The notes beneath the pieces were generated by a model. It did no database searches and had not been told where the DNA came from. It worked only from the letters and a program-made list of their open reading frames with translations. Positions 13,031 to 55,288 of a DNA stretch of 64,000 bases are shown here, piece after piece; within the stretch, counting starts at the first letter, position 1, and each line of letters opens with the position of its first letter. Location: NCBI GenBank assembly GCA_963785725.1, contig CAWAWS010000002.1, forward strand, positions 96,001 to 160,000, written 5' to 3'. Origin of the DNA: an uncultured delta proteobacterium. GTDB taxonomy: Bacteria; Myxococcota_A; Polyangia; Palsa-1104. The position numbers and the translations under genes were made by a program.

Positions 13031-13154
13031 AGTAAAACGTCGTGAGCGGCGCAAGCGCAAGGCGGAGCGAGAAACGGAGCGGAGCGGGCTCTGTGCCCGT
13101 GAGCACCGTATCGCAGCGACAACGCCGCGATTGCGTCGCTCACGACGTTTTACT
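13031..13154. repeat. 124-bp MITE/REP-like element with 24-bp terminal inverted repeats
   Basis: AGTAAAACGTCGTGAGCGGCGCAA (13031-13054) vs TTGCGTCGCTCACGACGTTTTACT (13131-13154), 23/24 complementary; internal hairpin GCGGGC-TCTGT-GCCCGT; lies between convergent genes. Confidence 0.7.
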
Positions 13155-14034
13155 GTTTGATGGTGCCGGTGCCGCCGACGCTGCCGACGGTGCTGGTGCC
13201 GCCCGAGACGTCGATGGCGAAGCGCGCGGCGTTGGCGGTGGCGTAGATGGCGACGCGGCCGCCGCCGCCGCCGCCGCCGTTCTTGCCGGCGCCGCGACCG
13301 CCGCGGGCCAAGATCTGGCCGCCGCCGAACACCGTGTCGGCTTCGATGAGCACGCTGCCGCCGGCGCCGCCGCCGGCCGCGTCGCCGCTGCCGTCGAGGC
13401 CGTTGGCACTGATGAGCGTCAACAAGTTGAGCGAGCTGCAGGCCAGCTCGATGACACCGCCGCCGTTGCCGCCCGTGTCGCCGCCGCCGCCCGAGCCGGG
13501 CTCGCGCGGGTAGGCGCTGTCGCCGAAGGGCGCGCCGCCGCCGCAGACGCCGGGGTCGGCGCCGCCGCCGCCGTAGCCGCCGCCGGACGCGCCGGCGTCG
13601 TTGGCGCAGCCGCCGCCGGCGCCGACGCCGGTCTCGGCCAAGTCGCCGCCGCCGTTGGCCTGCAGCGTGCCCGCGATGCTGATGCTGTTGGCGCAGGCGA
13701 AGAACTGCGTGGCGTTGACGGTGGCGGTGATGGTCAGGCGATCGTACGCGTGGCAGCCGCTGACGCTGGCGCCCGACAAGTTGATGTCGCCCTCGTTGCT
13801 GGCCGGGACGCACGGCAGCTTGGCGCAGGCCGCCGGCAACACCGGGCCGCCGTCGACGAGGGTGACGCCGCCGTCGCCGACGATGCCGCTCAAATCGCCG
13901 TTGTCGCCGCTGAGATCTTGGCCGGGGACGAAGATGCCGCCGCCGTCACGGCCGAGGTCGCTGCCGCCGTACGGCAACGCGAAGACGTCGCTACAGCCGG
14001 CGCAAAAGAGCACGAGCGCCCAGCTGCGGCCCAT
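13150..14034 (-). CDS. Glycine-rich secreted lipoprotein
   Basis: MGRSWALVLFCAG-C lipobox; repeated GGGxGGxG / GSGGG / ISANG / GGGGGGRVAI glycine-rich domain. Confidence 0.8.
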   Translation of the reverse strand: MGRSWALVLFCAGCSDVFALPYGGSDLGRDGGGIFVPGQDLSGDNGDLSGIVGDGGVTLVDGGPVLPAACAKLPCVPASNEGDINLSGASVSGCHAYDRLTITATVNATQFFACANSISIAGTLQANGGGDLAETGVGAGGGCANDAGASGGGYGGGGADPGVCGGGAPFGDSAYPREPGSGGGGDTGGNGGGVIELACSSLNLLTLISANGLDGSGDAAGGGAGGSVLIEADTVFGGGQILARGGRGAGKNGGGGGGGRVAIYATANAARFAIDVSGGTSTVGSVGGTGTIKQ

Positions 14035-14036
14035 CG

Positions 14037-15929
14037 TCACTTGCCGAGACGCGCCGATCCGGTGGCGCCGAGACGTGCTTCGTCGGCATAGCGGCCGTGC
14101 GGCTGGACCTGCAAGTAGCGCTGGTAGGCGGTGTTCGCTTCGCCTTGGCGACCGAGCGCGTGCAGGCAGCGCGCGGCGCCGATGAGCGCCTGCTGCGCGC
14201 GCGGACCGTGACCGGCCGCGACCGCCTGCAAGTGCGGCACGGCGCCCGCGCAATCGCCGAGACGATCGCGGCGCGCGCCGGCGAGGAACAGATGCGCGTC
14301 ATCGGCGTGCGGCGCTGACGGGAAACGGCGCAGATAATCCTCGAGCGCTTCCAGGCCCGCGCGCGTATCGCCGCCCGACAGCAGCGACTCGCCGCGACGG
14401 AACGCGGCCTCTTCGGCGAAGATGCCGTGGGCGAAACGGCGCTCGCTCTCGCCGTACGCGACGGCAGCGCGCAGCGGATCGCCCATGTCGTGGCCGAACG
14501 TCTGCGCCAACAGGAACTGCGCCTGCTCGGCTTCGGGACCATCCGAGCGCGCGACGCCGATGAGCAGCGGCAGCGCGCGCTCGGGCCGATGCGCCAGCCG
14601 CTCCGCCTGCGCTTGCAGGAGCGCCGCGCGATCGAGCTGGACGCGGGGCGCGTGGCCGGCGCGCAGCAGCTGCAAACGCGAAATGGCGCGATCGTACGCG
14701 CCGGCAAGGACTTCGGCTCGGGCGCGACCGAGGGCGTCGCGCGCGGCTTGGTTGGCGTCGGCGCGCGGCTGTGCGCTCGGCGCCTCGGCCGCGTGCCCCG
14801 CGGTCGGTGGCGGCTCGTCGATCGACAGCTCGAGCATCTCGGCGCGGAACAGCGTCGGCGTGCCCGCGCCGACGTCGACGCGCTCTTCGACCGGCAGGTG
14901 CCCTTCGGCGCGCACGCGCACGGCGTGACTGCCCGGCGCCACCGCCAACGACAGCGGCGCGCGACCATAATCGACGCCATCGACGGCGACCGTGGCGTCG
15001 GCGACGTCGGCGAACACATCGAGGCTCTCGGTCGGTCCCGAGGCGAGCGTCATGTCGAGCGCGCTCAGGCGCAACGCCGACTCGGCCGACAGCGCGCCCG
15101 GCGCCGTCGCGCCCGCCGCGAGCTGCGTCCCGGCCGGCACTTCGATGATGCGACCGGCGACGGCCACCCGCACGCGGCCGCGATCGCAGGCGACCTGCGT
15201 GCCCGCGGCCGACGAATCGACGAAGAAGCGCGTCCCGTGCACGCTGACCCGCGCATCGGCCGTCGCCACGATGAGCTCGGCGCCCGCCGCCAACGGATCG
15301 ACGTCGAGGACGACCGTGCCGCGCTCGAGCGTCAGCTGGCGCAGCTTGGTCAGGCTCGTCGACAGCTGCACGCGCGCACCGGTGGCGCCGCCCTCGACGG
15401 CCACGCGCGCGCCGCCCCACGTCGCCAAGACGCGGCCTTGAGGCGCGATGGTGAGCCAGCCGCGCGTCGGCACGACCATCTTGGCTTCGGCCACGGCATG
15501 ATCGTCGCCCAATTCGACGTCGGCCACGCCCTGCCGCGCGGCGATGGCGAAGCCGACATTGTCGCCGCCGCTGGCCACGGCTTCGTGACCCGCGCGCTGC
15601 GGATGCTTGAACGCCATCATCAACGCGAAGCCCGCTAGCGCGCTGGCGCACGCCGCCAGCGTCAGCCGCGACCACACCGGCCGCCGCCGCTCGAGGCGCC
15701 GGCGCACCGCCGTGATGTCTGCTTGCCGCATGAACGGCGGCTCCGCCGGCGGCTCCAGCGCCTCATGCACCGCGTCGATGCGCGCCATGGCCCGGCGACA
15801 GCGCTGGCAGCCGTCGACGTGATCGCCGATCCAACCCGCAGCCTCGGGCAACAGACGGCCGGCGCGAAACGCGAACAGCGCCTCCTCGGTCGGACCGCCT
15901 ACGTGAACGACTGGCGCGCCCGCGCTCAT
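14037..15929 (-). CDS. Anti-sigma factor: zf-HC2 - TM - FecR - PEGA - TPR
   Basis: HVDGCQRC (HxxxCxxC), TM, LERG...VSVHGTRFFV...CDRGRVRV FecR motif, PEGA, C-terminal TPR (YLRRFPSAPHA; YLQVQPHGRYA); ATG overlaps ECF stop. Confidence 0.85.
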   Translation of the reverse strand: MSAGAPVVHVGGPTEEALFAFRAGRLLPEAAGWIGDHVDGCQRCRRAMARIDAVHEALEPPAEPPFMRQADITAVRRRLERRRPVWSRLTLAACASALAGFALMMAFKHPQRAGHEAVASGGDNVGFAIAARQGVADVELGDDHAVAEAKMVVPTRGWLTIAPQGRVLATWGGARVAVEGGATGARVQLSTSLTKLRQLTLERGTVVLDVDPLAAGAELIVATADARVSVHGTRFFVDSSAAGTQVACDRGRVRVAVAGRIIEVPAGTQLAAGATAPGALSAESALRLSALDMTLASGPTESLDVFADVADATVAVDGVDYGRAPLSLAVAPGSHAVRVRAEGHLPVEERVDVGAGTPTLFRAEMLELSIDEPPPTAGHAAEAPSAQPRADANQAARDALGRARAEVLAGAYDRAISRLQLLRAGHAPRVQLDRAALLQAQAERLAHRPERALPLLIGVARSDGPEAEQAQFLLAQTFGHDMGDPLRAAVAYGESERRFAHGIFAEEAAFRRGESLLSGGDTRAGLEALEDYLRRFPSAPHADDAHLFLAGARRDRLGDCAGAVPHLQAVAAGHGPRAQQALIGAARCLHALGRQGEANTAYQRYLQVQPHGRYADEARLGATGSARLGK

Positions 15930-16537
15930 TGCCGTCCCCCGTCGATCGGCTTCGTCATCAGCTTGCCGCGCGCCGTGCGCAGCCGCCGCTTCACCGTGCG
16001 CGTCGAGCAGTCGAGCACCGCCGCCACGTCTTCGAGCGGCAGATCTTCCACTTCGTGCAGCACGAACGCCGCCCGCTCCTCGGCGCCCAGTTGATCGAGC
16101 GCGGCGCGCGCCGACATGACCGCGCGGCCCCGATCGAGCAGCTCGTCGGGCGTCCGCGAGCCTTGCGGCAGCGTCGCCTCCTCGGCGTCGCGGCGGAACC
16201 AGCTGCGCACGCGATCGTAACGGCGCGCGCGCGCGACGACGCGGTGGCAGATGCCGAACACGAACGTCGAGACGCGCGAACGACCTTCGAAGCCATCGAT
16301 CGAGCGACACACCTGCTCGAGCGACGACTGCACCAAATCCTCGTGCTGCTCGCGATCGCGCGGCGTCGCCAGCCGATAGACGATGCGATAGATCGACGGA
16401 TAGAGCGCGGTCATGAGCAGGTTGAGCGCGGCCGGATCGCCGGCCCGATGCCGCTCGACCAGCGCGGCCAGCTGCGGCTCGGGATCGCCGGCCGCTAACG
16501 TCGCAGGGCGTTTTTGCGTTCTATCCACGAGCTGCAT
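15926..16537 (-). CDS. ECF RNA polymerase sigma factor
   Basis: EDLVQ...FEGRSRVSTFVFGI (region 2); RAAFVLHEVEDLPLEDVAAVLDCSTRTVKRRL (region 4); SD GGAGG. Confidence 0.92.
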   Translation of the reverse strand: MQLVDRTQKRPATLAAGDPEPQLAALVERHRAGDPAALNLLMTALYPSIYRIVYRLATPRDREQHEDLVQSSLEQVCRSIDGFEGRSRVSTFVFGICHRVVARARRYDRVRSWFRRDAEEATLPQGSRTPDELLDRGRAVMSARAALDQLGAEERAAFVLHEVEDLPLEDVAAVLDCSTRTVKRRLRTARGKLMTKPIDGGRQ

Positions 16538-16622
16538 GCCTCCAGTGAGTATCTCAGCGCACCAACAAGGGCCACGCTGCTGCCATCTCTGCGAGCGAGC
16601 GGAGTATAGCGAATTTCATACG

Positions 16623-17825
16623 TTATGGTGTGTCTTGTGCGTTCGATGTCGGCGCCCGTCGCAGGGTCGGTCGACCCCACGACAGCCCGAGCGTGATCTC
16701 GGCCACGGCGCGCGAAAACTCGGCCACCGTCGTCGGTCCCAGCGTCACTTTCTCGTCGGTGACGGCCAAGGTCACGTCGAGCCCGATGACCAGCGACAGC
16801 GCGCCCGCGAGCCGGAACGACAGCCGCGGCCCGATGACGAGCGCGAACGACGCCACGGCGTGCCGGCCGTCGCCGTGGGCGTCGGTGGAGAGGACGACGA
16901 GCGCCGGGCCGGCCGTGGCGTCGAACGCGACCGCGCCGCCGGAAACGCCGACGCCGGCGCGCGCGGCCAAGGCGGCGCGAAAGAAGCCGAGCGCGTGGCC
17001 GTCGAGCGTCTGGTCGGCCCCAGCCAGCGACAGCGTGCCGCCGAGCCGCAAGACCCCGCGCGTCCACAGGATCCGCGCCGCGCCACCATATAACGAAGGG
17101 TTGTCGGCGCCAAAGCCGACGATGGCGGTGGCGGCGGCGTCGAGCGACAGTCGCTCGGCCGGCGGCGCCGACGGCCGGCGGAGGCGAGCCGCCGCCTCGC
17201 GTTCGGCCGCCTCTTGCCGATCGGCCGTGCGCGCCAGCTGCTCCTGCCGCGAACGCTCGGCGGCGAGCCGCTTTTGCACGGCGTCTTCGTCCTCGTCTTG
17301 CGGGCGCGGCGGCGCCGTCACCGTCGGGTGCTCGGCGACGATCGGCGCCGGCGGCGGCGGCGGCACCGGCTGCGGCGGAATCGGCGCCGGCTGCGTCTCG
17401 GGCGGTGCCGCTTTGGGCGCGCCGTGCGGCGCCAGCACGTCGGGAAACTCGGCCGTCAAGACGTCGGAGACCAAGAGCGACAAGCTCTCCGCCAAATCCT
17501 CGGCGTCGCGATAGGGGATCTCCGCTCGTCGCTGCGCGCGCGTCTTGCCGGCGCCGCTGACTTCGACGAGGCAGCGGGCGATGTGCTTGTTGCCGACGAA
17601 GAGGCAGCTCGCCTGCGCCTCGGCGTCGGCCGGCGCGGTCACGGTCAGCGTCGAGCCGAGCTGGCGCAGGGCGACCGCGACGTGCGCCGCCGCCGCCGAC
17701 TGCAGCTGCGCCGGCCCGTGGCCGTCGACGTTGACGCCGCGCCAGCGCACCCGCGCGCCGCCCGTTTCGGCGGCGAAGCTGCTGCCGCCCACCACGAGGC
17801 AGGCGAGCATGAACCAGCGCCGCAC
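16623..17825 (-). CDS. Secreted hypothetical protein, Pro-rich linker and probable C-terminal beta-barrel
   Basis: Signal peptide MRRWFMLACLVVGGSSFA; poly-Pro and coiled-coil segments; alternating hydrophobic strands. Confidence 0.7.
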   Translation of the reverse strand: MRRWFMLACLVVGGSSFAAETGGARVRWRGVNVDGHGPAQLQSAAAAHVAVALRQLGSTLTVTAPADAEAQASCLFVGNKHIARCLVEVSGAGKTRAQRRAEIPYRDAEDLAESLSLLVSDVLTAEFPDVLAPHGAPKAAPPETQPAPIPPQPVPPPPPAPIVAEHPTVTAPPRPQDEDEDAVQKRLAAERSRQEQLARTADRQEAAEREAAARLRRPSAPPAERLSLDAAATAIVGFGADNPSLYGGAARILWTRGVLRLGGTLSLAGADQTLDGHALGFFRAALAARAGVGVSGGAVAFDATAGPALVVLSTDAHGDGRHAVASFALVIGPRLSFRLAGALSLVIGLDVTLAVTDEKVTLGPTTVAEFSRAVAEITLGLSWGRPTLRRAPTSNAQDTP

Positions 17826-18974: not shown

Positions 18975-19316
18975 ATGGCCGAGAAGCTTGCGCAGGGTCA
19001 GGAGAAATTTGGCGCCGACGAGCGCAAATGGCGCGATGTCGGTGCCGGGTTGAGCGTGCTCGACTTGAACGAGGAGAACGGACGGCGGCTCCAGCTCGTC
19101 CGCATCACGCCCAACGGCCGCATGCTGGCGCACAAGCACGTCGGCACCGAGGTCATGTACGTCGTGCGTGGCTCGCTCACCGTCGACGGCGCGCGCCTGA
19201 AGGCCGGCGATGTCCTCGTCGCGCCGCCCAACACGGTGCACCGCGAGACGTGGAGCGCCGAGGGCTGCGAGCTGGTCCTCGAGTGCTCGCCCGACGACGA
19301 GCTGCTCCGCTCCTAA
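18975..19316 (+). CDS. Cupin domain protein (ChrR-like)
   Basis: AHKHVGTEVMYVVRGSL...LKAGD...PPNTVH; SD AGGAG. Confidence 0.85.
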   Translation: MAEKLAQGQEKFGADERKWRDVGAGLSVLDLNEENGRRLQLVRITPNGRMLAHKHVGTEVMYVVRGSLTVDGARLKAGDVLVAPPNTVHRETWSAEGCELVLECSPDDELLRS

Positions 19317-19587
19317 CTTCCTGCGACTCATGGCGATTGCCGAGCGTCGACCGTTGGCGTCGACGCTTGGTCGCGCCGTTACGACGAAGGCGCGCGCGAG
19401 CAGAGATAGGCTCGCCGTTGCCAGTGACGCCGATTGCAGCTCGGCGCCGAGCGACGGCGGCCTGCCGGTCCAGGCGCTCGTGTGATCGCGTGAGGTTGCG
19501 CGCAGCCCGCGAAGCCGAGCGCGAAGGAAAGCAAGGCGGTGAGCTATCAACCGCTGAATGACAGCGACCTTCTCGCAACGAGACGAG

Positions 19588-20391
19588 TTAGATGCACTTG
19601 CCGACGCAGGGCGGATTCGGAATCGTGGGCGGCAGAACGCAATGGCCTGCGCCCGTGTCGGAAGAACAGTACAGCCTGCCGTTGCACTGACCGCAGCTGT
19701 GCGGGATGTTGCAATCATCGACGACCTCACCGCAGTTGGCCGTTCCGCACCAGTCTGCTTTGGTCGTCTCTTTGGGGATGCACTGGTAGCTCGCGAGCTT
19801 GGCGAAATCCCCCGGGTCGAGAGTGATGTCCAAGCCGGGCTCGTTGCCGCCGGTGCCGAGCGGGACGTCGACGCTGCCGACCTGTCCGACGCCCTCGTCG
19901 CCGCCCTGAACCGGGAGCGCCGCCGGGATGATGCCACCGCCCGACGGCGCCGGTGTCGGCGCCGCCGGAACGAACGGGATCGTTCCCGGCATCGTCTGGA
20001 AGTAGCTCAGCTGTGCCGGCGCCAGCGAACAGTACCAGAGCTTGTCCGCGAACACCTGGGCCGGCGTCGCCTTTAGATCCGTGGCATACGCAAAGTCGGT
20101 ACTCTGCGCGAAGCCGATGGCCAGAAGGTTGAAGATACCGGTGTCCGGGTCGGCCGGAGTCGGCGTCGTGACGAGGTAGCCGGCCGTTCCGAGGTCCGCC
20201 CACGGGTTGTCGGAGCAATTGTAGACGCCGTTCGCTTCCCACATGATCGTGCAGAGCGGATTCTCGGCGGTGTTGCAGTCCGGAACGCCTCCTCCTCCCC
20301 TCACGATAACTGCAGAAGTGCTGCTACTCGTGGGCGAAACGGCACAGCCGGCAGCAACGAAAAAGACGAGGACGCTAGCGAAGGCGCGCAT
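19588..20391 (-). CDS. Cys-rich secreted lipoprotein (paralog A of tandem pair)
   Basis: SD AGGAG; lipobox AAG-C; NPWADLGTAGYLV; Cys-rich C-terminal domain; ends PPCVGKCI*. Confidence 0.75.
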   Translation of the reverse strand: MRAFASVLVFFVAAGCAVSPTSSSTSAVIVRGGGGVPDCNTAENPLCTIMWEANGVYNCSDNPWADLGTAGYLVTTPTPADPDTGIFNLLAIGFAQSTDFAYATDLKATPAQVFADKLWYCSLAPAQLSYFQTMPGTIPFVPAAPTPAPSGGGIIPAALPVQGGDEGVGQVGSVDVPLGTGGNEPGLDITLDPGDFAKLASYQCIPKETTKADWCGTANCGEVVDDCNIPHSCGQCNGRLYCSSDTGAGHCVLPPTIPNPPCVGKCI

Positions 20392-20426
20392 GGTTCTCCT
20401 GAGCGGACGAATGTGCGACAGGACAT

Positions 20427-20442
20427 AGCAAGTCTGTTGCCG
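20427..20442 (-). promoter_or_regulatory. Putative sigma54 -24/-12 promoter for 19588-20391
   Basis: Minus strand CGGCAACAGACTTGCT = GG-N10-GC with TTGC; IHF-like CAAcgacTTA at 20462-20471. Confidence 0.7.
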
Positions 20443-20479
20443 ATCACAGCGCCAAGCGGCACAACGACTTACGCGCGAC

Positions 20480-20501
20480 CTGTAGCTGACTGAGCTACGG
20501 A
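20480..20501. promoter_or_regulatory. Palindromic operator/UAS, copy 1 (GTAGCT-N5-AGCTAC)
   Basis: CTGTAGCTGACTGAGCTACGGA; 18/22 identical to 21412-21433 and at the same offset from a sigma54 promoter. Confidence 0.6.
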
Positions 20502-20726
20502 AATCGGAGAGCTGGCTGACGAAACAGCCTCGCGGTTATCGGTGAAAACGAGCGGTTCACTACAGCTCGATGACGACACACGGGAGACGAATTTGCCGCT
20601 GCTGGGCGGCTCGCTTCGTCGACGGAATCGGGCCGATTGAGCGGTGGCGACGAGGCGAAGGAGCTGCGTGCGGAGAATCGAGCGAGCGGCGCACCGCGTG
20701 GTTTTGCGCGCGTTAGGATGTCGTCG

Positions 20727-21275
20727 TCAGATGCAGTCGCCGTGGCAGGTTATTGGCGGCGTCGTGACTGGCGGCGTCGTGACGGTCGGCGTCGCGCGAC
20801 ATGCGGCCAACGGCGCTAGCGAGGCCGGGCCGTCGCAGACGATCTTGCACGGATTGTTGCCCGTGCCGTCGATGGGCACGAGACCGCCGCCGCCGACCTG
20901 TCCGATCTGGACGCTGATCTGCGACCTGCAGCTGGCGGGAAGCGCCGCCGGACAGGAGAGCGAGTACGCCAGATATTGCTTCAGCGCGGCGCAGTCGGTG
21001 ACGAACGGCTGCCACGACGCCGGCTTCGTCAGCGTCGCGTCGTAGCCGAAGAGGACAAAGCCGCTTCCCGACGGTACCGGAACGATATAGCCCGGCGCTT
21101 GACCGGCCCAAGGGTTGTACGCCGGATCCGTAATCACCGGCGCTTCCTCGCAGGTGTCGACGCAGGAAATCGCCGTGTCGGCGGCGGTCGTCGAGCCTTC
21201 GGGCGCGCTTTCCGGCGGCAAACAACCGATGACGGCGAAAGCGAACGTGGACAGCGTCAGCAGGCGAAGGCGCAT
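20727..21275 (-). CDS. Cys-rich secreted lipoprotein (paralog B of tandem pair)
   Basis: SD GGAGG; lipobox VIG-C; NPWAGQAPGYIV; ends PPITCHGDCI*. Confidence 0.75.
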   Translation of the reverse strand: MRLRLLTLSTFAFAVIGCLPPESAPEGSTTAADTAISCVDTCEEAPVITDPAYNPWAGQAPGYIVPVPSGSGFVLFGYDATLTKPASWQPFVTDCAALKQYLAYSLSCPAALPASCRSQISVQIGQVGGGGLVPIDGTGNNPCKIVCDGPASLAPLAACRATPTVTTPPVTTPPITCHGDCI

Positions 21276-21357
21276 CGTTCCTCCGAATTCGTTGGGCGAC
21301 AACGCGTGCGCTGGATCAAACGAGCGAATCCAGCTGCAGCAGCGTGTGCGCTGGCAA

Positions 21358-21373
21358 AGCAAGACCGCGGCCA
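21358..21373 (-). promoter_or_regulatory. Putative sigma54 -24/-12 promoter for 20727-21275
   Basis: Minus strand TGGCCGCGGTCTTGCT = GG-N10-GC with TTGC. Confidence 0.7.
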
Positions 21374-21411
21374 CGACGCGCACCGCGCCGTTTCAGCTGC
21401 TTGCCGGATTG

Positions 21412-21433
21412 CTGTGGCTGCGCGAGCTACGGA
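21412..21433. promoter_or_regulatory. Palindromic operator/UAS, copy 2
   Basis: CTGTGGCTGCGCGAGCTACGGA; matches 20480-20501 at 18/22. Confidence 0.6.
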
Positions 21434-21446
21434 TTCCGACGGCGGT

Positions 21447-24141
21447 CTACTGAAACAGGAGGACGTAGCGGGTCCAGCTTCTAGCGTCTTTTTGTAGCCG
21501 CGCCAGCCGCTCGTCGCGCAGCGCCACCGGCGGCGATTCGCCGTGCGCGATGCGCGCGAGCACGGCGTCGAAGAAGGCGCCGGCGTTGGCGTCGGGGATC
21601 GCCTCCGACGACGCGAAGACCGCGCGCGCGCCGGCGACGATGAGCGCCATCGGCAAGCCCCACGGCTCGTGCAGATAGGGCGCGGCGCGGCCGGCGTTGC
21701 AAGCCGCGAGGACGACGAGCGGGCGATTGCGCAGCGGCTGCTTCTCGAGATCGGCGGCCGTGAGCGCGAAGTTTCCCGCGGCGTCGGGCGAGAGCGCCAG
21801 GAGCCACGTGTCCGACAAGTCGAGATCGATGAGGCCGTGGGCGTTGAACTCAATCTCGCCGGCGTCGCCGAGCTCGGCCAGCGCGCGTTTCGGCGTGGCG
21901 TCGGCGCCGGCGAGCGTGCGCACGCCGTCGGCGCGCGTCGTCCACGGAAACAGCCGCGGCAGGCTCAGCGTCGGCGGCGGCAAGACGTCGGTGACGACGA
22001 GGCGCGGCGCGGCCGGGGACGGATTCGCCTTCGGCGGCGCGTCAGGCGCGTGACCGAGCCGATAGCTCCAGGCGATGTCCGGCGGCAAGAGCTCGGGCCG
22101 ACCGTTCACCGGCGCCAGCGCGTACACGGCCACTTCGGGGCACGTCGCCAACACCGCACGCACCGCCGGCGGCACCAGCTGCGCGGCGTCGATCGCGGGG
22201 TTGGTGCGCACCTCGTAGTGACCGACGGCGGCGCCGCCGGCGGCGCGCGCGGCGACGACGAGGCGCGCGTCGTCGAGGGCGACGCCGAGCGCGCAGCCCT
22301 GCCCTGCCTTGGCTTCGGCTTCCTGCGCCAGCGTGTCGAGCGCGCCGTCGAAGTCGCCACGGCGACCGGCGTCGACGGCGAGCATTTGATAGGCGAAGGT
22401 GCGCGCTTTTTTGGCGTCGGCGTCGAGGCCGGCGCGCGCGGGCGTCATCGCCGGCGCCAGCAGCTTCATCGCCGCCGGCCGATCGCTGCGCAACGACAAG
22501 CGCGCCAACATGACGTCGGCCAGCCGTTGCTGGCTCGGCGTCAGCGACGGACGCGCCGCTTGCAGCTCGGCGGGCACGGTCTTGGCTTGCGGCGTGTCGC
22601 GACCGGCCAAGTAGAGGCTCGTCACCAAATCCGTGTTCAACAGCGCCACCGAATGATCGCACGCGGGCGTCTCCGCCAATTCGCGCGCGGCGCCGTCGAA
22701 ATCGAGCTTGAAGACGTCCTCGACGCCGAAGGCGAGGTGCGACGTGCGATGACCGACGCAGCTCTCGGGAGCGCGCAGCATGCCTTCGGTCAAATAGGCG
22801 CGCATGAGCGAGAAGTCGTTGCGATAGCGCGCGACTTGGCCGAGGAGAAAGATGACGATGGTCTCGGCGAAGCGCGGCACCAGGCCGGCGCGTCGGCTCG
22901 AGGCGATGGTGGCGAGCGCCCAGCGCCGGGAGACGCTGGTGCGATGGCGCTCTTGCTCGTTACTGGCGAGCTGCTTCTCCATGTCGGCGCAGCGATAGTC
23001 GAGGTGGTGCTGATTGCAGGCGTCGACGGCGGCGGTGAGCTCGGTGACGGCAGCGTCGAAGTCGCCGCGCGCGGCGGCGACGGCGGCTTCGCTCTGCGCC
23101 AGCCTGGCCTGCCACCACGGATCGCCGTTGCGCGCGACGAGCTGACGCAGGAGCGCGAGCATCGGCCGGGCTCGTGCGGTTGAAGAGGACGAGGCTGCCG
23201 AGCATGAGGTCGTCGGCGTGCGCCTTGGTGATGGCCGCGAAGAATTCGGCCAGCTCGGCCGGCGGCACCGCCGGCGGCGACGTCGGCATCAGCATGTAGC
23301 GCGCGTAACGCGGACCGAGCGTGGCGCGCGCCGCGGGCGCCTCCTTGGCGATGCGATCGATCCACGTCGCCAGCGTCGCGTCGCCGAAGATGCCGTCGAG
23401 CTTCACGGCCAAGGGACGCAGCTCCTGCAGCCGCTGCACCGACTGCGCCGAACGCGCGGCGTGGTAGAAATAGTGGCGCACCATGCTCGGCGCGCGCCGC
23501 ACGACGTCGTCGCCCGGCAGCGGCCCGCCGGTGATCATCGGCTTGGCGGCGGCGATGTCGGCGGCGGTGCTCTTGAGGCGCGCGCTCCAGCCGTCCTTGA
23601 GCGCCGCCGAACGGGCGCGCGCTTCGTCGGCCCAGCCCGGCTCGGCGAGCGCGGCGACCGCGTCGAACGACTGCGCGGCGGCGAGCGGCAGCTCCAGCGC
23701 CACCAAGGCCAGCGCCCGATTCCAGAGCGCGCGTGAATGCTTCGGCGCGTGCGCGAGGACGGCGTCGAGCTGCTCCAGCGCTTCGTCGACGTTGCCGCGC
23801 ATCAGCGTCGCGAGCGCGCGGTCGGCGGCGACGTCGTCGGACTTGGGCGCGCGCTCGAGCGCTTCGGCGGCGCGCCCGAGATCGCCGGCCACGAGCGACG
23901 CCGCGCCCACGCCGTGCCAATCGCCGGCGTCGGACAGGCGCGCCACCGCCGCCAGCGGCACCGACTCGCGCGCGTCCTTGTGGTCGGCGAGGCCTCCATC
24001 GAGCGGGCGCCAACGATCGAGCGCGGCGTAGCTGAGCCGAGCCGCGAGCGCGCGTTTGGGCGCCGTCACGAGCGGCTCGTCGCGATGACAGCTCGCGAGG
24101 CACAGCGAGATTGCGGCAGCGAGCGTCACGAAGCGCAGCAT
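21447..24141 (-). CDS. Lipoprotein TPR-CHAT (caspase-fold) protease, ~897 aa, one apparent +1 frameshift near 23165
   Basis: N-terminal lipobox LAS-C; TPR (ALWNRALAL...GWADEAR); after the shift ...GDPWW; C-terminal CHAT with EFNAHG and VVLAAC (His/Cys dyad), GLPMALIVAGARAV, ALRDER. Confidence 0.82.
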
Positions 24142-24205
24142 GTGCGCTATGAATCGTTCGTTCCGCCGCCCAAAATCAAGCGGCGATTGTGTTTACGAAG
24201 ATCGG

Positions 24206-25096
24206 CTACAGCGCCGCGCGGACTTTGCGCTCTTCTTCGCTGAGCTCGTAGATGCGCTTCAACAACGCGTCGGCGATGCGCTTGTGCGACGAGAGGCGGT
24301 TGCCGAACTTCTTGAACGGCGACAGATCGATGGGCTCGCCGAAGACGGCGATGACGCGCTTGGTGCCGGCGAAGTTGCCTTTGACGTCGGCGACGATGTC
24401 GTTCGAGAGGCCGTGGATGAACGCGGGCACGACGATCGGCCACGCGTCCATGACCAGCTTGCCGACGCCCGGCTGTGCCGGCAGCGGCTGATAGGGATCG
24501 TCGTTCTTGTTGCGCGTGCCTTCCGGATGAAACCCGACGAGCACCTGGCCTTTGTGCAGCTCGGCGACGACGCGCTCGAGCGCCCACTTGTTGAAGTCGG
24601 CCTTCTGCGGCTCGCGAAAGAACGGCGGAAACATGCGCCCGCCGCCGATGAACAGGTTCACGAGCACGCCGAGCGCGCTTTGATAGAAGAAATCGGCGCG
24701 CACCGGACACAACACCGGCTGACGCAGCGGCGTGTGACGATGCAAGAGCAGCATCAACATGTAGAGATCGAAGAAGCTGCGATGGTTCGAGACGAGGACG
24801 ATGCCGTCCGAGTACTTCAAGCCCTGCAGCCGCTCGAGACCGACGGGAATCATCATGTTGCGCGAGCCGACGGTCATCCAGCCGGCGCCGATGGTGCGCA
24901 GCCAGCGCTCGGTCAGCGGCAGCGCGCGCCGATGCAGGAAATCCATGGCGCGGAAGGCGGTGCGCTCGAACGGCGCCAACAATTCGATCGGCGGCGCGAG
25001 CGAGAGCGCTGCGTCGTCGTGCGGCGGCTGCGTGATCGGCGTCTTCGTCGTCGGCATCGGGCTGGCCGGCATCTCGAATTCCAAAGTAGCCTTCAA
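24206..25096 (-). CDS. Lysophospholipid/glycerol-phosphate acyltransferase (PlsC family); start may be 25072
   Basis: SNHRSFFD (HX4D), FHPEGTR. Confidence 0.9.
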   Translation of the reverse strand: MKATLEFEMPASPMPTTKTPITQPPHDDAALSLAPPIELLAPFERTAFRAMDFLHRRALPLTERWLRTIGAGWMTVGSRNMMIPVGLERLQGLKYSDGIVLVSNHRSFFDLYMLMLLLHRHTPLRQPVLCPVRADFFYQSALGVLVNLFIGGGRMFPPFFREPQKADFNKWALERVVAELHKGQVLVGFHPEGTRNKNDDPYQPLPAQPGVGKLVMDAWPIVVPAFIHGLSNDIVADVKGNFAGTKRVIAVFGEPIDLSPFKKFGNRLSSHKRIADALLKRIYELSEEERKVRAAL

Positions 25097-25253
25097 TTAA
25101 CCAAACGGTCAACCCAGAAAGCGCAGCGAAAGCGTGGCCATTTCTCGGGTAACGATCGCGCGCTCGGTGGCATCGGCGGCGACCGTCACGCGCGCGGTCG
25201 GACCAATCGGGCGCTTGTGCGGACGGTGAGAAAGTGCAATACGCATTGGGAAG

Positions 25254-25943
25254 ATGGCCTCGGCCCATGCGATGAATGCGCGACGATCGGCGGCGTTTTA
25301 CGACGTCGACGGCACGCTCATCAAGACCAACATCGTGCACGCGTTCGGCTGGTATGCGCGGCATCAGCCGACGCTGACGGGATCGATCGTCAAGTCGGCC
25401 AAGACGCTCTTGTCGACGCCGGTCTTCGCGGTCGCCGACAAGCTGTCGCGCAAAGTGTTCAATCAGCTCTTCTATGGTTATTACGCGGGCGAGCCGGAAG
25501 ATCGGCTGATCGTGCTCGCCGAAGAGCTCTTCGAAGACACGATCAAGCCGAGCATCTTTCCGCGGGCGCGCGATCTCATCGAGCAGTCGCGGCGCGCCGG
25601 CTGTCGCCAGGTGTTGGTGTCGGGCGGGCTCGACTTCACCGTTAGACCGCTGGCGCGCTATTTGGGCGTCGACGACTTCATTACCAATACCCTCGAGTTC
25701 GAGAACGGCTATGCCACAGGCCATCTCGGTAAGCCGTTCGTAGCCGGCGCGACTAAAGCGGTCATCATGCGCGACTACGCGGCCAAGCATGATATCGACC
25801 TAGCCGCTTCTTACGCCTATTCCGATTCGTACTCCGACTATCCAATGCTCGCCGTGGTCGGCCATCCGACTGCGGTAAACCCCGATTGGAGACTGAAAGC
25901 GACCGCTCGTTCTTACGACTGGCCAGTCCTAGACTTGCGGTAA
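25254..25943 (+). CDS. HAD-IB family hydrolase (positional equivalent of myxobacterial elbB)
   Basis: [33 protein letters not shown]. Confidence 0.9.
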
Positions 25944-26042
25944 CTGACAGACAACTGCCCTGCGGGCCGTATTGGCAGCAAGGGGCAATCATTCTGCGAG
26001 CCCGATCAGGCTCAAGGAATGGGAAAGCCAGGAACTATAAAG

Positions 26043-27656
26043 ATGCGCGCAATTCGTCCACGTAGCCGTGGCGCCGCTGATGAGAGCGTCGTCACCATCG
26101 ACACCGACTCCGCACCCCGCATTCTCTTTTACGGCGAAGACTTCCTCTGCGAGGATCTGCCGGTCGGCACGCGCGTGATCTATCCGCGTGCGCCGCTCGC
26201 CGGCCTGCCCAATGTGCGCGCGGCGATTCGCTATGCGCTGCACCATCCCGAAGGCGACATGGAGCCGCTGCACGCGCTCTTGACGCCGGGGATGAAGGTG
26301 ACGATCGCCGTCGACGACGTGTCGCTGCCCTTGCCGCCGATGAAGCGGCCCGACGTGCGCGAGGTGATCCTCGACATCGTCCTCGAGATGCTCGCCGACC
26401 ACGGCGTCGACGACATTCACATCATCATCGCGACCTCGCTGCACCGCCGCATGCACGACTGGGAAGTCAAGCGCATGGTCGGCGACAAGGTCTACAACGC
26501 TTACTGGCCCGATAAGCTTTACAACCACGACGCCTGCGATCCCGACGGGATGGTCACGCTCGGCAAGACGCGCCACGGCGAAGTCGTCGAGACCAACAAG
26601 CGCGCCGCCGACAGCGACCTCGTCATTTACGTCAACATCAACTTAGTGCCGATGGACGGCGGGCATAAGTCGGTCGGCGTCGGGCTTTGCGGTTACGAGT
26701 CGCTCAAGGCGCATCACACGCCGAAAGCGATCGTCAATTCGAACTCGTTCATGGATCCGGATAACTCGGAGCTCGCGCATTCGGTGCATCGCATCGGGCG
26801 TGTGTGCGAGCAGCACATGAAAGTGTTCCATATCGAGACCGCGCTCAACTCCAAGATGTTCGATGGACCGTTGTCGTTCTTGATGAAGAACGAAGACGAC
26901 TTCACCGAAATGGACCGACTGACATTCGAAGGTTTGCAGTGGACACTAAAGCGCACTCCTCGTGCGCTGCGCCGTGAAATCTTCATGCGCGTGCCGTCGC
27001 CTTATGAAGTCATCGCCGTGCACGCGGGCTCGGCCGAACCGACGCACGCCAAAGTGTTGGCGAAGAATTACGAGCAATATGCGGTTCCCGTCGAAGGCCA
27101 GGCGGATATCCTGATCTCGGGTATTCCGTATATCTCGCCTTACAACGTCAATTCAAAGGCGCTCAATCCCTTGCTCGTGCAGGTGATGGCGCTTGGTTAT
27201 TTCTTTCATATGTATCGCCATAAGCCGCTGCTCAAAGAAGGCGGTGTCTTGATCGTGACGCATCCCTGTTCCGATCAGTTCGATCCGGTGCATCACCCGT
27301 CGTATATCGAGTTCTTCAATCGACTGCTGCCGGAAACGCGCGACGCGTACACGTTGGAAAAGAAGTATCAGGACGAGTTCGCGTTCAATCCGTCCTATGT
27401 CGAGATGTATCGCCGCGGCAACGCCTATCACGGCGCGCATCCGTTCTTCATGTGGTATTGGGGCCAGAAAGGCCGCGAGCATTGCGGCAAGATCATCGTC
27501 GTCGGCAGCGATAACGCCACCGTGCCCAAGCTGCTCGGCTGGGAGCGCGCCGAGACGCTGGCCGAAGCGATCGCCATGGGCCGCTCGCACATGGGCCGCT
27601 CGGCGCAGATCACGATGTTGCATCACCCGCCCATCGTCATCAGCGACGTTCGCTAA
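26043..27656 (+). CDS. Lactate racemase (LarA/DUF2088) domain protein (positional equivalent of elbC); alternative start 26019
   Basis: VTIAVDD, IATSLHR, YNHDA, DGGHKSV; SD AGGA upstream. Confidence 0.8.
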
Positions 27657-27665
27657 GGAGCGTCC

Positions 27666-30600
27666 ATGCTGCAAAAGGCACAACTGCCGCCGCTCGACGT
27701 CGGCGAGACGCTCGCGGGCAAGCGCATTCTCTTCGTCGGCGCCACTGGCTTCGTCGGCAAAGTGGCGCTCTCGATGTTCCTCTGTCGCTATCCGGCGCTG
27801 GGCAAGCTGTTCGTGCTCGTGCGTCCGGGCGCCGGCTCGTCGTCGGACGACCGCTTCTTCACGAAAATAGCGGCGTCGCCGACGTTCGATCCGATTCGCG
27901 AGCGCTGGGGCGAAGGCACCGACGCGTTCCTGCGCGAAAAATGCGTGCCGCTGGCCGGCGACGTCTCGCGACCCTTATTGAACTTCAATGAGGAGACCTT
28001 AGCGAAGATCGGCAAGCTCGACGCCATCATCAACTGCGCGGGATTGGTGTCATTCAATCCGTCGTTGGAGACCGCACTACGCATCAACGTCTTAGGGCCG
28101 AAGCATGTGCTGGAAGTGGCGCGGCGCACCGGCGCGTCGGTGGTGCACATCTCGACCTGCTTCGTGGCCGGCAATCGCGACGGCGAAGTGTGGGAAGACG
28201 AGCCGCTGGTCGGCTATTTCCCGCGTAAAGATCGCGGCCACGGCGCGCAGACCGACACCTTGCGCGACGACGACTTCTCGGTCGAGCTCGAGATCGCCGA
28301 CTGCCAGCGCATCATCGATCAAATCAAGAGCCGCGCCGACGACCGCGCGCACGTCTCCGAGTTCCGCGATCGCGGCGCCGCGCGGCTCAAGAGCGAAGGC
28401 CGCGACGCCGACGACGAGCGCACGCTCAAAATCGCCGTCCAGCGCGAGCGCAAAGTGTGGGTGGCCGAGAAGCTCACCGATCTCGGCATGGAGCGCGCGC
28501 AACATTGGGGCTGGCCCAACACGTACACGTACACGAAGTCGCTCGGCGATCAGGTGTGCGCGCAAGCGGGCGACGTGCGCGCCTGCATCGTGCGGCCGGC
28601 GATCGTCGAATCGTCGGTGCGCTATCCGTTCGAAGGCTGGAACGAGGGCTTCACGACGTCGGCGCCGCTGGCGTTCATGAGCATCAAAGGCCATCGCACC
28701 TATCCGGCCGGCGACAAGGCGACGCTCGACATCATCCCCGTCGACATGGTGGCCGCGGGGCTCATCATGGCGACGGCGGCGACCATCGCGGGGCAGAACG
28801 AGCTCGTCTATCAGCTCGGCTCGTCGGACGTGAACCCGCTGTACATGAAGCGCGCCGTCGAGCTGCTCGGCCTGCACAAGCGCCGCTATTTCCAAGAGCG
28901 CAACGACAAGGACGAAGGCTCGAAGCTCCTCAACATCGTGCTGTCGCGGATGGAGCCGGTCGCCGTCTCGCGCGAGCGTTACGAGAGCGCGTCGGCGCCG
29001 CTGTGGCTGTCGCTGGCCGAGCGCGCGACCAAGCTGATCGACGACTACACGCCGCGCTGGGGCGCGCCGCGTTTGGCCGGCATGGCCGAGCACATGAAGA
29101 CGCGCCTTGGCCAAGTCTCACAGGTGGCCAAGCAGACGAACGAGCTGTTTCAGCTGTTCATGCCGTTCATCTACGAGCGCGAATACGTCTTCCGCTGCGA
29201 CAACATTCGCGCGCTCTATGCGCGCTTGACGCCGGCCGATCAGGCGCTCCTGCGCTGGGATCCCGAGCAGCTGAGCTGGCGCCATTACTGGCTCGACATT
29301 CACATGCGCGCCCTCGAGAAGTGGGTCTTCCCCAACCTCGAGGAGGAGTTCAAGCAGCGTCCGAAGGCGGTCTACACCTATCGCGATCTGCTCGAGATGT
29401 TCGACGCGACGACGAAGCACCATCGTCATCGCACCGCCATGCGCCTCTTGCCGCATCCCGACAGCTTGTCGGAGCCGCATCGCTACACCTACGCCGACCT
29501 GCAGGACATGGCCGATCGCGTCGCCGCGATGCTGCGCGAGCGCGGCGTCATCCCCGGCGACAAGGTCATGCTGCTCGCCGAGAATCGGCCCGAGTGGGGC
29601 ATCACCTACTTCGGCATTTTGAAGGCGGGCGCGGTCGTGGTGCCGGTCGATTGGCAGTCGACGGCGGACGAAGTGCAGAACCTCGTCGGCTGGGCGCGCG
29701 CCAAAGCGATCGTCCTCAGCGACAAAGTGCGCGACCGGCTGAGCGCGTTCAACGGCGAATTCGCCGCGGCGCAGATCATCCGCTTCGACGATCTCTTGCA
29801 CGAAGAGCCCAAAGTCTCGGCGGCGGCGCTCGTGCATCATCCGAAGGCGGACGACCTCGCGTCGCTCATTTTCACGTCGGGAACGACGGGGCGGCCCAAG
29901 GGCGTCATGCTGTCGCATCGCAACTTCTCGTCGCTGTTGTCGAAGCTCGCGGGCGTGTTCGACATCGACAAGCACGACGGTCTCTTGTCGGTCTTGCCGC
30001 TGCATCACACCTTCGAGTTCACGGCGGGCCTGCTCATGCCGCTCATGCGCGGCGCGCAGATCACCTATCTCGACGAAGTCGACGCCGACGCGCTCACGCA
30101 CGCCTTCGAGAGCGGCAACATCACCGGCATGGTCGGCGTGCCCGCGCTGTGGCAGCTGTTCCAGCGCAAGATCGAGAAGTCGGTCGCCGACTCGGGGCCG
30201 TGGGCCAAGCGCATCTTCGACCTGCTCATCGACGCCAACCGCAAGCTGCGCGATCGCGTGCCGCCGGCGCTCGACAGCTTGATGCTGCTCAACTGGGGAC
30301 GCCTCTTCTTCTGGCCGGTGCATCAGAAGTTCGGCGGACGGCTGCGCCTGCTCATCTCGGGCGGCTCGGCGCTGCCGACCGACACGATGAAGACGCTGCG
30401 CGGCCTCGGCTTCAACCTGTTCGAAGGCTACGGCTTGACCGAAGCCTCGCCGGTGTTGACGGTCAATCGACCGGGCACGCGCCTTCTGCCCGGCGCCGTC
30501 GGTGAGCCGCTGCCGGGCATCGACGTGCGCATCGACAACCCCGATGCGCGCGGTGTCGGCGAGGTCGTGGCCTCGGGACCGAACGTCATGCTCGGCTACT

Positions 30601-55274: not shown

Positions 55275-55288
55275 GCCTGGAGGCACTC

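Follow-up and report, generated by a model that had tools for sequence, protein, structure and literature searches.

A lipoprotein-anchored DdvA-like TPR-CHAT gene and two paralogous Cys-rich lipoprotein genes form a candidate envelope module in an uncultured delta proteobacterium

Within a 64,000-nucleotide stretch (hereafter, the window) of the genome of an uncultured delta proteobacterium, a soil myxobacterium, ORF calls on the minus strand at 19588–24141 identified three co-directional genes, which encode a predicted lipoprotein-anchored, DdvA-like scaffold/TPR-CHAT protein of ~897 amino acids (CHAT gene, 21447–24141) followed by two small Cys-rich lipoproteins, lipo1 (182 amino acids, 20727–21275) and lipo2 (267 amino acids, 19588–20391). 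Third-position GC was 0.80–0.92 across all genes of the trio. The best explanation that we can offer for this arrangement, that the two lipoproteins are partners of the tethered CHAT protein, is plausible but unproven, and we assign it a probability of roughly 45%; it is proposed by analogy with a nearly obligate CHAT–lipoprotein gene pair found elsewhere in Myxococcota. The sequence-only reading had described three co-oriented genes, a lipoprotein-signal TPR-CHAT with a His/Cys dyad, and two secreted lipoproteins that are distant paralogs, and each of these elements was recovered in our analysis.

The CHAT gene product begins with the lipoprotein signal peptide MLRFVTLAAAISLCLASC (24088–24141, minus strand), in which the lipobox LASC places the predicted lipidated residue at Cys18. 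A lipobox was also present in each of the four closest orthologs (P0009, P0010, P0011, and P0012; 881–902 amino acids, 64–78% identical). Pfam searches returned a CHAT match of 53.8 bits in the C part (cut-off, 24 bits) and weak TPR matches in the N part. The codons for the catalytic His (IEFNAHGLIDL, 21837–21839, minus strand) and catalytic Cys (VVLAACNAGRA, 21699–21701, minus strand) align to H862 and C907 of DdvA, respectively, and both residues are kept without exception in the 17 homologs that were aligned. The C part matched residues 431–991 of the 991-residue DdvA chain (PDB 8rot_B/8rw5; query residues 10–571, E = 6.1e-57), and the intact ortholog P0009 matched nearly the whole of the same chain (residues 3–902 to 83–991 of 8rot_B, E = 4.4e-85). 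Judged from these alignments, the mature protein is homologous over its whole length to the scaffold/TPR-CHAT region that DdvA carries in the periplasm. It had also been claimed that the CHAT protein is extracytoplasmic, which agrees with the lipoboxes here and in the four closest orthologs and with the more distant homologs, zf-HC2 anti-sigma factors whose CHAT part is placed outside the membrane; PF13490 was found in 9 of 22 of these, and in two other genomes (G010 and G060) a zf-HC2 motif opens the homologous CHAT gene, which lies 3′ of a gene for an ECF sigma factor.

DdvA of Myxococcus xanthus (MXAN_7288; ECF sigma factor DdvS) is described as a periplasmic TPR-CHAT with a cryo-EM structure (PDB 8rot, 8rw5; PMC11506125, PMC6061681). 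The statement that characterised TPR-CHATs are cytoplasmic is therefore outdated, and the label 'undescribed system' does not suit a CHAT protein whose homology to the already characterised DdvA spans the whole periplasmic region. The resemblance may extend to the downstream gene: in the ddvS–ddvA operon the next gene, MXAN_7287, is described as encoding 'a protein of unknown function' (PMC11506125, Figure 1 legend; PMC6061681, Table 1), and in relatives the gene in this position encodes a small lipoprotein. There are also clear differences. Whereas DdvA is a transmembrane anti-sigma factor, the CHAT protein of the window has neither the zinc anti-sigma domain nor the membrane helix, which are replaced by the 18-residue signal peptide. 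The gene 5′ of it is an acyltransferase gene rather than a cognate ECF sigma gene, and CBASS or CRISPR genes were absent from the 20 neighbouring ORFs scanned (8.7–35 kb of the window). The downstream lipoproteins here also belong to a different sequence family and have sigma-54-type promoters. The anti-sigma-free architecture is shared with P0009–P0012 and with a paralog in the same genome (C24:214126–215829), none of which is characterised; the paralog is anchored in the membrane at its N terminus, and the gene after it encodes a 117-amino-acid lipoprotein.

As assembled, the CHAT gene runs through two reading frames (24141–23161, then 23159–21447), a split accounted for by a single extra base at 23160. 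When orthologs were compared with the window by tblastn, the frame switched between 23168 and 23179, and the reading 'SPAD|LALLRQLVARNGD' across 23160 agreed with the orthologs. A genuine extra base would make the CHAT gene of this strain a pseudogene and leave the lipoproteins as the sole functional products. The base is present in the window sequence, the ortholog P0012 likewise loses its frame immediately ahead of the catalytic His, and none of the sequencing runs that we found came from the source sample. Nevertheless, exactly one letter was absent at this position in two contigs of one soil run (X1) and one contig of another (X5), which come from related strains ~95–98% identical to the window rather than from the source sample's own reads; both halves of the gene retained coding-type composition (third-position GC of 0.89 and 0.92), the gene showed no further breaks, and rpoN and at least three enhancer-binding-protein (EBP) genes were split in the same assembly, pointing to indel errors. 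Since the related contigs lack the base and the assembly has broken rpoN as well, a mistake in the assembly is likely and decay of the locus improbable, in which case the CHAT protein would be made whole and exported.

The two lipoproteins are tandem paralogs within a very small family, which we call A4. Lipo1 has the lipobox VIGC, 11 Cys residues, and the C terminus PPITCHGDCI; its ATG start, at MRLRLL, is the same as that of its homologs, and it had no match in Pfam or NCBIfam. Lipo2, with the lipobox AAGC, 15 Cys residues, and the C terminus NPPCVGKCI, resembles lipo1 with an added Cys-rich module. Although the two proteins matched each other with an E value of only 3e-4 in pairwise BLASTP, they aligned colinearly with their homologs (nine sequences in total, 24 invariant columns). 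The added module (CG..CG...D.C.....CG.C.....C.....C; 19639–19749, minus strand), which is not in Pfam, corresponds to profile positions ~165–220, which were matched repeatedly; larger proteins from other organisms carry it in tandem copies (P0041, P0043, P0045, P0047, and others), and module-only matches were found in 38 of the 400 genomes sampled from the class. Full-length A4 members were found in none of these 400 genomes, 36 of which contain a DdvA-like CHAT, so that A4 is no general partner of DdvA-like CHATs.

Both lipoprotein genes have the control regions that the sequence-only reading had proposed, each with its own sigma-54-type −24/−12 promoter and a shared palindromic site. The putative promoters, on the minus strand, are TGGCCGCGGTCTTGCT / TGGCCGCGGTCTTGCTT for lipo1 (21357–21373) and CGGCAACAGACTTGCT / CGGCAACAGACTTGCTA for lipo2 (20426–20442). 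The motif alone is not rare, with three matches to the loose pattern GGC-N7-TTGCT in the window against 2.2 expected, two of which lie 83 and 36 nt 5′ of the lipo1 and lipo2 start codons, respectively. Farther upstream, both genes have the element CCGTAGCTC-N3-CAGCYACAG, with the palindromic core GTAGCT-N5-AGCYAC: CCGTAGCTCGCGCAGCCACAG, an imperfect palindrome and putative EBP site 60 nt upstream of the −24 GG of lipo1 (21412–21432, minus strand), and CCGTAGCTCAGTCAGCTACAG, with a perfect GTAGCT-N5-AGCTAC palindrome 59 nt upstream of the −24 GG of lipo2 (20480–20500, minus strand). At 0–1 mismatch these were the only two copies in the 8.9-Mb genome; since the two sites themselves supplied the pattern, the window statistic of the element is circular. 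The palindrome and promoter together make up a duplicated control region. The genome encodes rpoN and about 68 EBP genes, and one EBP may bind the palindrome and switch on lipo1 and lipo2 together.

The trio is one insert in a variable spot bordered by two conserved genes: upstream, an acyltransferase gene (24206–25096, minus strand; Pfam match, orthologs in G001–G004 and G010), and downstream, convergent with lipo2, a ChrR-type cupin gene (18975–19316, plus strand) supported by Pfam, orthologs, and synteny. The spacing between these genes is 20 nt in G010 and 4.9 kb here, where it holds the trio; within the same genus it is 1.4 kb in G003, 3.4 kb in G004, and 2.9 kb in G002. None of the trio's genes was found in the four same-genus genomes. 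Beyond the cupin gene, 3 kb from the trio, lies an ECF pair (14037–16537), which raises the idea that the tethered CHAT protein acts on the zinc-type anti-sigma factor of this pair as a two-protein version of DdvA/DdvS. The ECF sigma gene (15926–16537) and the nearby FecR/PEGA/TPR anti-sigma-like gene are indeed on the same strand. However, two opposite-strand genes separate the pair from the trio, and the block of genes for the cupin, a secreted protein, an unknown protein, the ECF sigma factor, and the anti-sigma factor is kept in G010, G003, and G004 without a CHAT or A4 gene, which makes this split switch very improbable. In G010 and G004 the block extends as far as a gene for a Gly-rich lipoprotein; in G003 the contig breaks off inside the gene for the anti-sigma factor.

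The case for partnership between the CHAT protein and its neighbours comes from other DdvA-like loci. A co-directional lipoprotein gene follows the CHAT gene in 14 of 27 evaluated loci, compared with a crude background of 14% in this genome. A profile of a small CHAT-linked lipoprotein (A8/A9) gave 31 matches in 29 of the 121 genomes of one family, and of the 30 matches with loci, 28 lie 15–195 nt 3′ of a DdvA-like CHAT gene; the other two are a second tandem copy behind the same CHAT gene (G180) and a weak, non-adjacent match. A DdvA-like CHAT gene followed by a small lipoprotein gene is thus a conserved, undescribed, and nearly obligate pair in other Myxococcota, which supports, but by analogy only, the general idea of CHAT–lipoprotein coupling.

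The three genes might instead be neighbours by accident, with the CHAT lipoprotein and the two sigma-54-controlled lipoproteins serving separate envelope functions and lipo1 and lipo2 answering their own EBP without touching the CHAT protein. We consider this possible, if doubtful. Each of the two lipoprotein genes has a promoter to itself, the upstream element is private to them, and they start 171 and 335 nt from their preceding genes, a spacing that counts against partnership given that A8-type genes start 15–195 nt after the CHAT match; so does the break in the CHAT gene, in this assembly as in P0012. No homology was detected between A4 and A8/A9 (hhalign probability 1.9% and 1.0%, E = 0.026 and 0.056; reversed controls, 0.76 and 0.15), and with signal peptides included the alignment was confined to them. 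Moreover, 15.5% of this genome's crude genes are lipoprotein-like by a permissive lipobox pattern, none of the 36 other genomes with a DdvA-like CHAT yielded an A4 member, and because sister genomes carry unrelated genes at this spot (for an M23-type peptidase in G003; for a membrane protein and a glycosyltransferase in G004), the genes of the trio could have arrived separately. Set against chance adjacency, the position, size, and lipobox of lipo1 and lipo2 are those of the nearly obligate partner encoded downstream of DdvA-like genes, a tandem lipoprotein pair exists behind one DdvA-like CHAT locus, and the four same-genus genomes lack every member of the trio. In addition, a CHAT ortholog and a lipo2 homolog are probably on one contig in a more distant relative: P0012 (78% identical) and P0002 (58% identical) are each recorded on a 19,994-bp contig, an equality of size that does not prove that the contig is the same. 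Against partnership, the contigs that carry two of the closest CHAT orthologs, P0009 (on 32 kb) and P0011 (on 113 kb), had no size match among those of the lipo1 or lipo2 homologs found in a word-based search.

Under the partnership reading, lipo1 and lipo2 would be periplasmic partners of the tethered TPR-CHAT, serving as ligand, regulator, or substrate. Comparable systems are separase–securin and craspase (Cas7-11–Csx29, substrate Csx30), in which the TPR-CHAT protease either is controlled by a partner bound along its TPR region or cuts that partner (PMC11506125); these share the TPR-CHAT (caspase-fold) architecture but are cytoplasmic, monomeric, and controlled by RNA or the cell cycle. The sequence-only reading likewise reasoned from a partner encoded next door. 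The TPR/scaffold part may bind one or both lipoproteins and thereby set the caspase-like site to cut in trans, either within the partner or, as has been suggested for DdvA, in the membrane-proximal linker of the CHAT protein itself. Because the CHAT protein has no anti-sigma domain, the output would not be a sigma factor set free directly but envelope proteins that are released or processed.

The interval 19588–24141 is filled by three co-directional minus-strand genes, as the sequence-only reading had stated: a TPR-CHAT gene (21447–24141), followed by lipo1 (20727–21275) and lipo2 (19588–20391). Their third-position GC content (0.80–0.92) is of the coding type. The host assembly (G000; 8.9 Mb, 47 contigs, ~70% GC, with the window at positions 96001–160000 of contig C2) has an acyltransferase gene (24206–25096, minus strand; assigned with Pfam) upstream of the CHAT gene, and two genes convergent with the trio downstream of lipo2, a cupin gene (18975–19316) and a gene for a secreted protein. 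The distance between the acyltransferase and cupin genes is 4.9 kb in the window, where the trio occupies it; 1.4, 3.4 and 2.9 kb in the same-genus genomes G003, G004 and G002, respectively; and 20 nt, an empty spot, in G010, a genome of the same family and another genus. In G003 the spot carries a gene for an M23-type peptidase; in G004 it carries genes for a membrane protein and a GT2 glycosyltransferase. The acyltransferase–cupin interval (within 18975–25096; compared with extracted loci L072–L075) is thus a variable spot, in which we saw no repeats or mobility genes; nor were flanking direct or inverted repeats pointing to a mobile element found around the trio. Searches of the four same-genus genomes (53–99% complete) retrieved none of the trio genes. 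Outside the host, a CHAT ortholog (P0012, 78% identical) and a lipo2 homolog (P0002, 58% identical) are both recorded on a 19,994-bp contig, and the equal size suggests that it is one and the same contig. The P0012 reading frame is lost just before the catalytic His, by a further assembly error or by decay in parallel.

The CHAT gene occupies two frames in the assembly, and three orthologs from other genomes span both ORFs. Relative to these orthologs, the frame switch falls between 23168 and 23179: reading 'SPAD' (GAT, 23163–23161), skipping the G at 23160 and continuing with 'LALLRQLVARNGD' gives the ortholog sequence without a gap. Contigs of related strains from two public soil runs have exactly one letter fewer at 23160, the base being missing in two contigs of run X1 and one of run X5 (~98% identity). 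Moreover, rpoN is split into two frames in the same assembly, and at least three genes for sigma-54 activators (enhancer-binding proteins) are split within one domain (C20:359480–359960, C22:202381–202883, C4:65440–65935 and C13:19413–19911 for rpoN and the activator genes). Because related contigs lack the base and these other genes are also split, the frameshift at 23160 is probably an assembly error. The splits suggest that indel errors occur throughout the assembly, and frameshifts in this genome should therefore not be called pseudogenes without read support.

The frame-corrected protein has ~897 residues, compared with 881–902 in the four closest orthologs (64–78% identity). It begins with MLRFVTLAAAISLCLASC, which comprises an 18-residue lipoprotein signal with the lipobox LASC, and this signal peptide is its only hydrophobic stretch. 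Pfam gives weak TPR matches in the N-terminal part and a CHAT match (PF12770) in the C-terminal part of 53.8 bits, against a cut-off of 24. The codons of the predicted catalytic His (21837–21839, minus strand) and Cys (21699–21701, minus strand) were verified, and both residues are unchanged in all 17 aligned homologs. The description of this gene product as a TPR-CHAT protein with a lipoprotein signal and a His/Cys dyad therefore held, and by domain and dyad it fits the caspase-fold His/Cys peptidases of the Pfam CHAT family.

The same reading had taken the characterized TPR-CHAT proteins to be cytoplasmic, which is outdated, since DdvA of Myxococcus xanthus is a periplasmic TPR-CHAT protein and a homolog of the window protein. 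To our knowledge, DdvA is the only periplasmic TPR-CHAT protein that has been studied. A search of PDB sequences returned a single match, DdvA (8rot_B/8rw5, 991 residues), to which the C-terminal part of the window CHAT protein aligned with an E value of 6.1e-57 (residues 10–571 against 431–991) and the intact ortholog P0009 with an E value of 4.4e-85 (3–902 against 83–991). The alignment places the dyad on DdvA H862 and C907, and the CHAT region aligns without a large insertion to that of DdvA, which lacks the three-helix motif of separase and craspase. On these alignments, the counterpart of the mature lipoprotein is the stretch of DdvA that runs from immediately behind the membrane helix to the C-terminus, the scaffold/TPR-CHAT region of the lipoprotein being homologous to DdvA residues ~95–991. 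According to the available text of the DdvA papers, DdvA is a single-pass anti-sigma factor (PMC11506125, PMC6061681) that is proposed to cleave its membrane-proximal linker in trans once a signal arrives; its authors call this signal unknown and think that it may be a periplasmic protein (PMC11506125).

Unlike DdvA, the window protein has no zf-HC2 match (PF13490) in its N-terminal part by Pfam; a lipoprotein signal replaces both the zinc anti-sigma domain and the membrane helix. The gene also has the acyltransferase gene upstream, in place of the cognate ECF sigma gene of the DdvA arrangement. A lipobox stands at the start of all four closest orthologs (P0009–P0012), whereas the homologs in G010 and G060 (43–44% identity) have a zf-HC2 motif at the start and are preceded by an ECF sigma gene. 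Overall, PF13490 was found in 9 of 22 CHAT homologs at E ≤ 1e-20. A second paralog without the zinc anti-sigma domain (C24, 38% identity) is encoded in the host genome and has a membrane anchor. The association that characterizes craspase (type III-E Csx29), with Cas7-11/gRAMP and Csx30, Csx31 and RpoE, was not seen among the 20 ORFs scanned from ~8,700 to ~35,000, none of which had a Cas-type domain. The label of an undescribed system accordingly does not suit the CHAT protein, which appears from its sequence to be a lipoprotein-anchored member of the already known DdvA kind that lacks the zinc anti-sigma domain; what is new here is this form, not the kind.

The ECF sigma gene nearest to the CHAT gene (15926–16537) lies in a minus-strand block (13150–17810) with genes for a secreted protein with a Pro-rich linker (16623–17810), a zinc-type anti-sigma factor with FecR, PEGA and TPR parts (14037–~15900) and a Gly-rich lipoprotein (13150–~14030). 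This block is syntenic in G010, G003 and G004, where the trio is missing. Because this backbone is conserved without the trio, the ECF sigma/anti-sigma pair (14037–16537) is not tied to it. On the other side, the region 25254–33194, of lower GC content (0.56–0.65), encodes a HAD hydrolase, a LarA_N-domain protein and an 1842-residue multidomain protein with two reductase domains and AMP-binding, carrier and acyltransferase domains, which we take to resemble the myxobacterial ether-lipid enzyme ElbD.

The two genes behind the CHAT gene encode Cys-rich proteins, lipo1 (182 residues, 11 Cys, lipobox VIGC), which begins 171 nt after the CHAT stop codon, and then lipo2 (267 residues, 15 Cys, lipobox AAGC), so that by their lipoboxes all three products of the trio are predicted lipoproteins. 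Direct comparison of lipo1 with lipo2 gave an E value of 3e-4 at best, and neither retrieved the other in searches of the host genome at E ≤ 0.01. Together with their homologs they are colinear, with 24 invariant columns in nine sequences, which bears out the earlier view of them as distant paralogs. In an alignment of 21 members of their family (A4) the lipobox Cys is nearly invariant, and the motifs are NPW, GY.V, GQVG..VP..GGN.P and a C-terminal PP..C.G.CI.

A4 is a tiny family. A word-based search of 5.8 billion proteins returned two relatives of lipo2 and five of lipo1, and when 1.84 billion representatives were searched exhaustively with a profile, 39 matches came up at E ≤ 1e-3: 17 near-full-length proteins (182–265 residues), 2 fragments and 20 that match no more than a ~45-residue Cys-rich module, repeated copies of which occur in larger proteins. 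A search for lipo2 in 60 relatives was negative, and 400 sampled genomes of the class yielded module matches and no full-length member. Neither A4 nor the alignment A7 matched Pfam or NCBIfam, the ESM Atlas gave lipo2 no score above 0.77, and fold searches with lipo1 and lipo2 returned no informative match. The module (CG..CG...D.CG....CG.C.....C...G.C), for which Pfam has no model, is present in a single copy in lipo2 (19639–19749) and in some other A4 members, and larger secreted proteins from other organisms carry 3–7 copies of it in tandem; it occurs in proteins P0041, P0043, P0045, P0047–P0050 and P0053.

Sigma-54 promoters have the consensus TGGCAC-N5-TTGCW, with the GG and GC elements 12 nt apart. 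Sites of this −24/−12 type lie 83 nt before the ATG of lipo1 (TGGCCGCGGTCTTGCT) and 36 nt before that of lipo2 (CGGCAACAGACTTGCT), both with fitting GG/GC spacing and a match to 9 of 12 consensus positions; the loose form of the motif is not rare in the window. Against an expectation of 2.2, it was observed there three times, which gives the motif alone little weight. Additionally, an element CCGTAGCTC-N3-CAGCYACAG with a palindromic core lies 60 and 59 nt upstream of the GG of lipo1 and lipo2, respectively; its two copies are identical at 18 of 21 positions, and from this element to the end of the promoter the upstream regions of the two genes can be aligned with a single gap. A whole-genome scan found no further copy with fewer than two mismatches, and at ≤3 mismatches the palindrome had 31 genomic sites compared with 272 for a control pattern, so it is not enriched elsewhere. 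The sigma-54-type sites and, at a fitting distance from them, the shared palindromic site reported earlier are thus present as putative elements, and we infer that one activator may co-regulate both genes. The genome carries rpoN and about 68 activator genes. The nearest in the window, and the only one seen there, lies at 55271–57022, 34 kb from the lipoprotein promoters; its product is an NtrC-type response regulator in which a sigma-54 interaction domain is combined with HTH_8. A scan of 19300–25400 gave no sigma-70-like promoter and two terminator-like sites, fewer than the shuffled controls gave.

DdvA-like CHAT genes in other genomes are also followed by lipoprotein genes. A CHAT match at E ≤ 1e-60 was present in 36 of 400 genomes of the class (a count that takes in G331), and a co-directional lipoprotein gene follows 14 of the 27 DdvA-like loci evaluated, which exclude one further locus; with the same permissive lipobox pattern, the background of lipoprotein-like co-directional downstream neighbors in the host genome is 14%. 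Eleven of the 14 are small (168–216 residues) and start within ~75 nt, and an iterated HMM search united nine of these in one family (A8/A9), with 0 of 960 shuffled decoys matched at E ≤ 10. The lipoproteins downstream of the CHAT genes of G010 and G070 fall outside this family, and that of G010 is not related to A4. A profile of the nine A8 members found 31 matches in 29 of the 121 genomes of one myxobacterial family (f17). Among the 30 with extracted loci (L102–L131; for example, L107 1501–2004 and 2225–2695), 28 follow a DdvA-like CHAT gene at a distance of 15–195 nt, another stands in tandem with one of these as the second copy behind the same CHAT gene (G180), and the weakest is not adjacent to a CHAT gene; the 31st lies 35 nt after a CHAT match. 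In this family the A8 gene is almost always found behind a DdvA-like gene; the counts come from related genomes and are hence not independent. The A8 proteins, which are absent from Pfam, have 165–216 residues, with a lipobox in 26 of 26 extracted members, and are only 17–28% identical, so the adjacency is old. The A8 lipoprotein is a candidate for a partner or co-sensor role alongside DdvA-type proteins. The ddvS–ddvA operon of M. xanthus continues, in the available text, with 'a protein of unknown function' (MXAN_7287; PMC11506125, PMC6061681); the text supplements of PMC11506125, as far as available, mention neither a lipoprotein nor MXAN_7287. Our literature search found no paper describing a pair of a DdvA-like CHAT protein and a small lipoprotein.

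The genes lipo1 and lipo2 resemble the A8 genes in position, size, lipobox and co-direction behind a DdvA-like CHAT gene, and by this analogy it is plausible, at a probability of roughly 0.45, that their products are partners of the CHAT protein. The main rival, an accidental neighborhood of the CHAT protein and the lipoproteins, is a real possibility that we do not favor; it draws on the lipoprotein genes having their own promoters and on the absence of A4 from 36 other sampled genomes with DdvA-like CHATs. Sequence homology of lipo1 and lipo2 to A8/A9 was not detectable with hhalign or a 30-member HMM: hhalign gave probabilities of 1.9% and 1.0%, little above reversed controls, for A4 against A8 and A9; the HMM of 30 A8 members gave an E value of 32 for both proteins; and when signal peptides were kept, the alignment of A4 with A8 was confined to them. 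The two AlphaFold models compared on the partner question (pLDDT 64 and 73.5) have the same order of elements, in which the two helices are separated by a Gly-rich loop of low confidence, and their lists of the top 50 structural neighbors have eight entries in common, all with weak scores. Complex prediction with the C-terminal part of CHAT and mature lipo1 scored 0.00, which speaks neither for nor against partnership.

A more specific version of partnership, also by analogy, strikes us as unlikely: that lipo1 and lipo2 would belong, as extremely diverged members, to a general group of partner lipoproteins whose role is to gate separase-like TPR-CHATs of the periplasm in the manner of securin, and that they would be supplied through sigma-54. 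The most conserved motif of lipo1 and lipo2, GQVG..V..GGGN.P, lies in a loop predicted to be disordered, which could serve as a pseudo-substrate or cleavage site. A sigma-54 activator would then supply the partner on demand, and a transcriptional signal would thereby lead to proteolysis in the envelope. In that case, the conserved gene after ddvA would provide the co-sensor still missing from the DdvA/DdvS antiphage switch.

For the DdvA kind as a whole, the sequences indicate that the periplasmic TPR-CHAT module also occurs on a lipid anchor with no anti-sigma part attached; its output there would have to be something other than the release of a sigma factor. The window trio appears to add a variant with duplicate candidate partners under putative sigma-54 control. 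Of more general reach is a by-product of the analysis, namely that DdvA-like genes are followed nearly obligately by a small lipoprotein gene, whose product offers a concrete candidate partner for DdvA that is approachable in M. xanthus.
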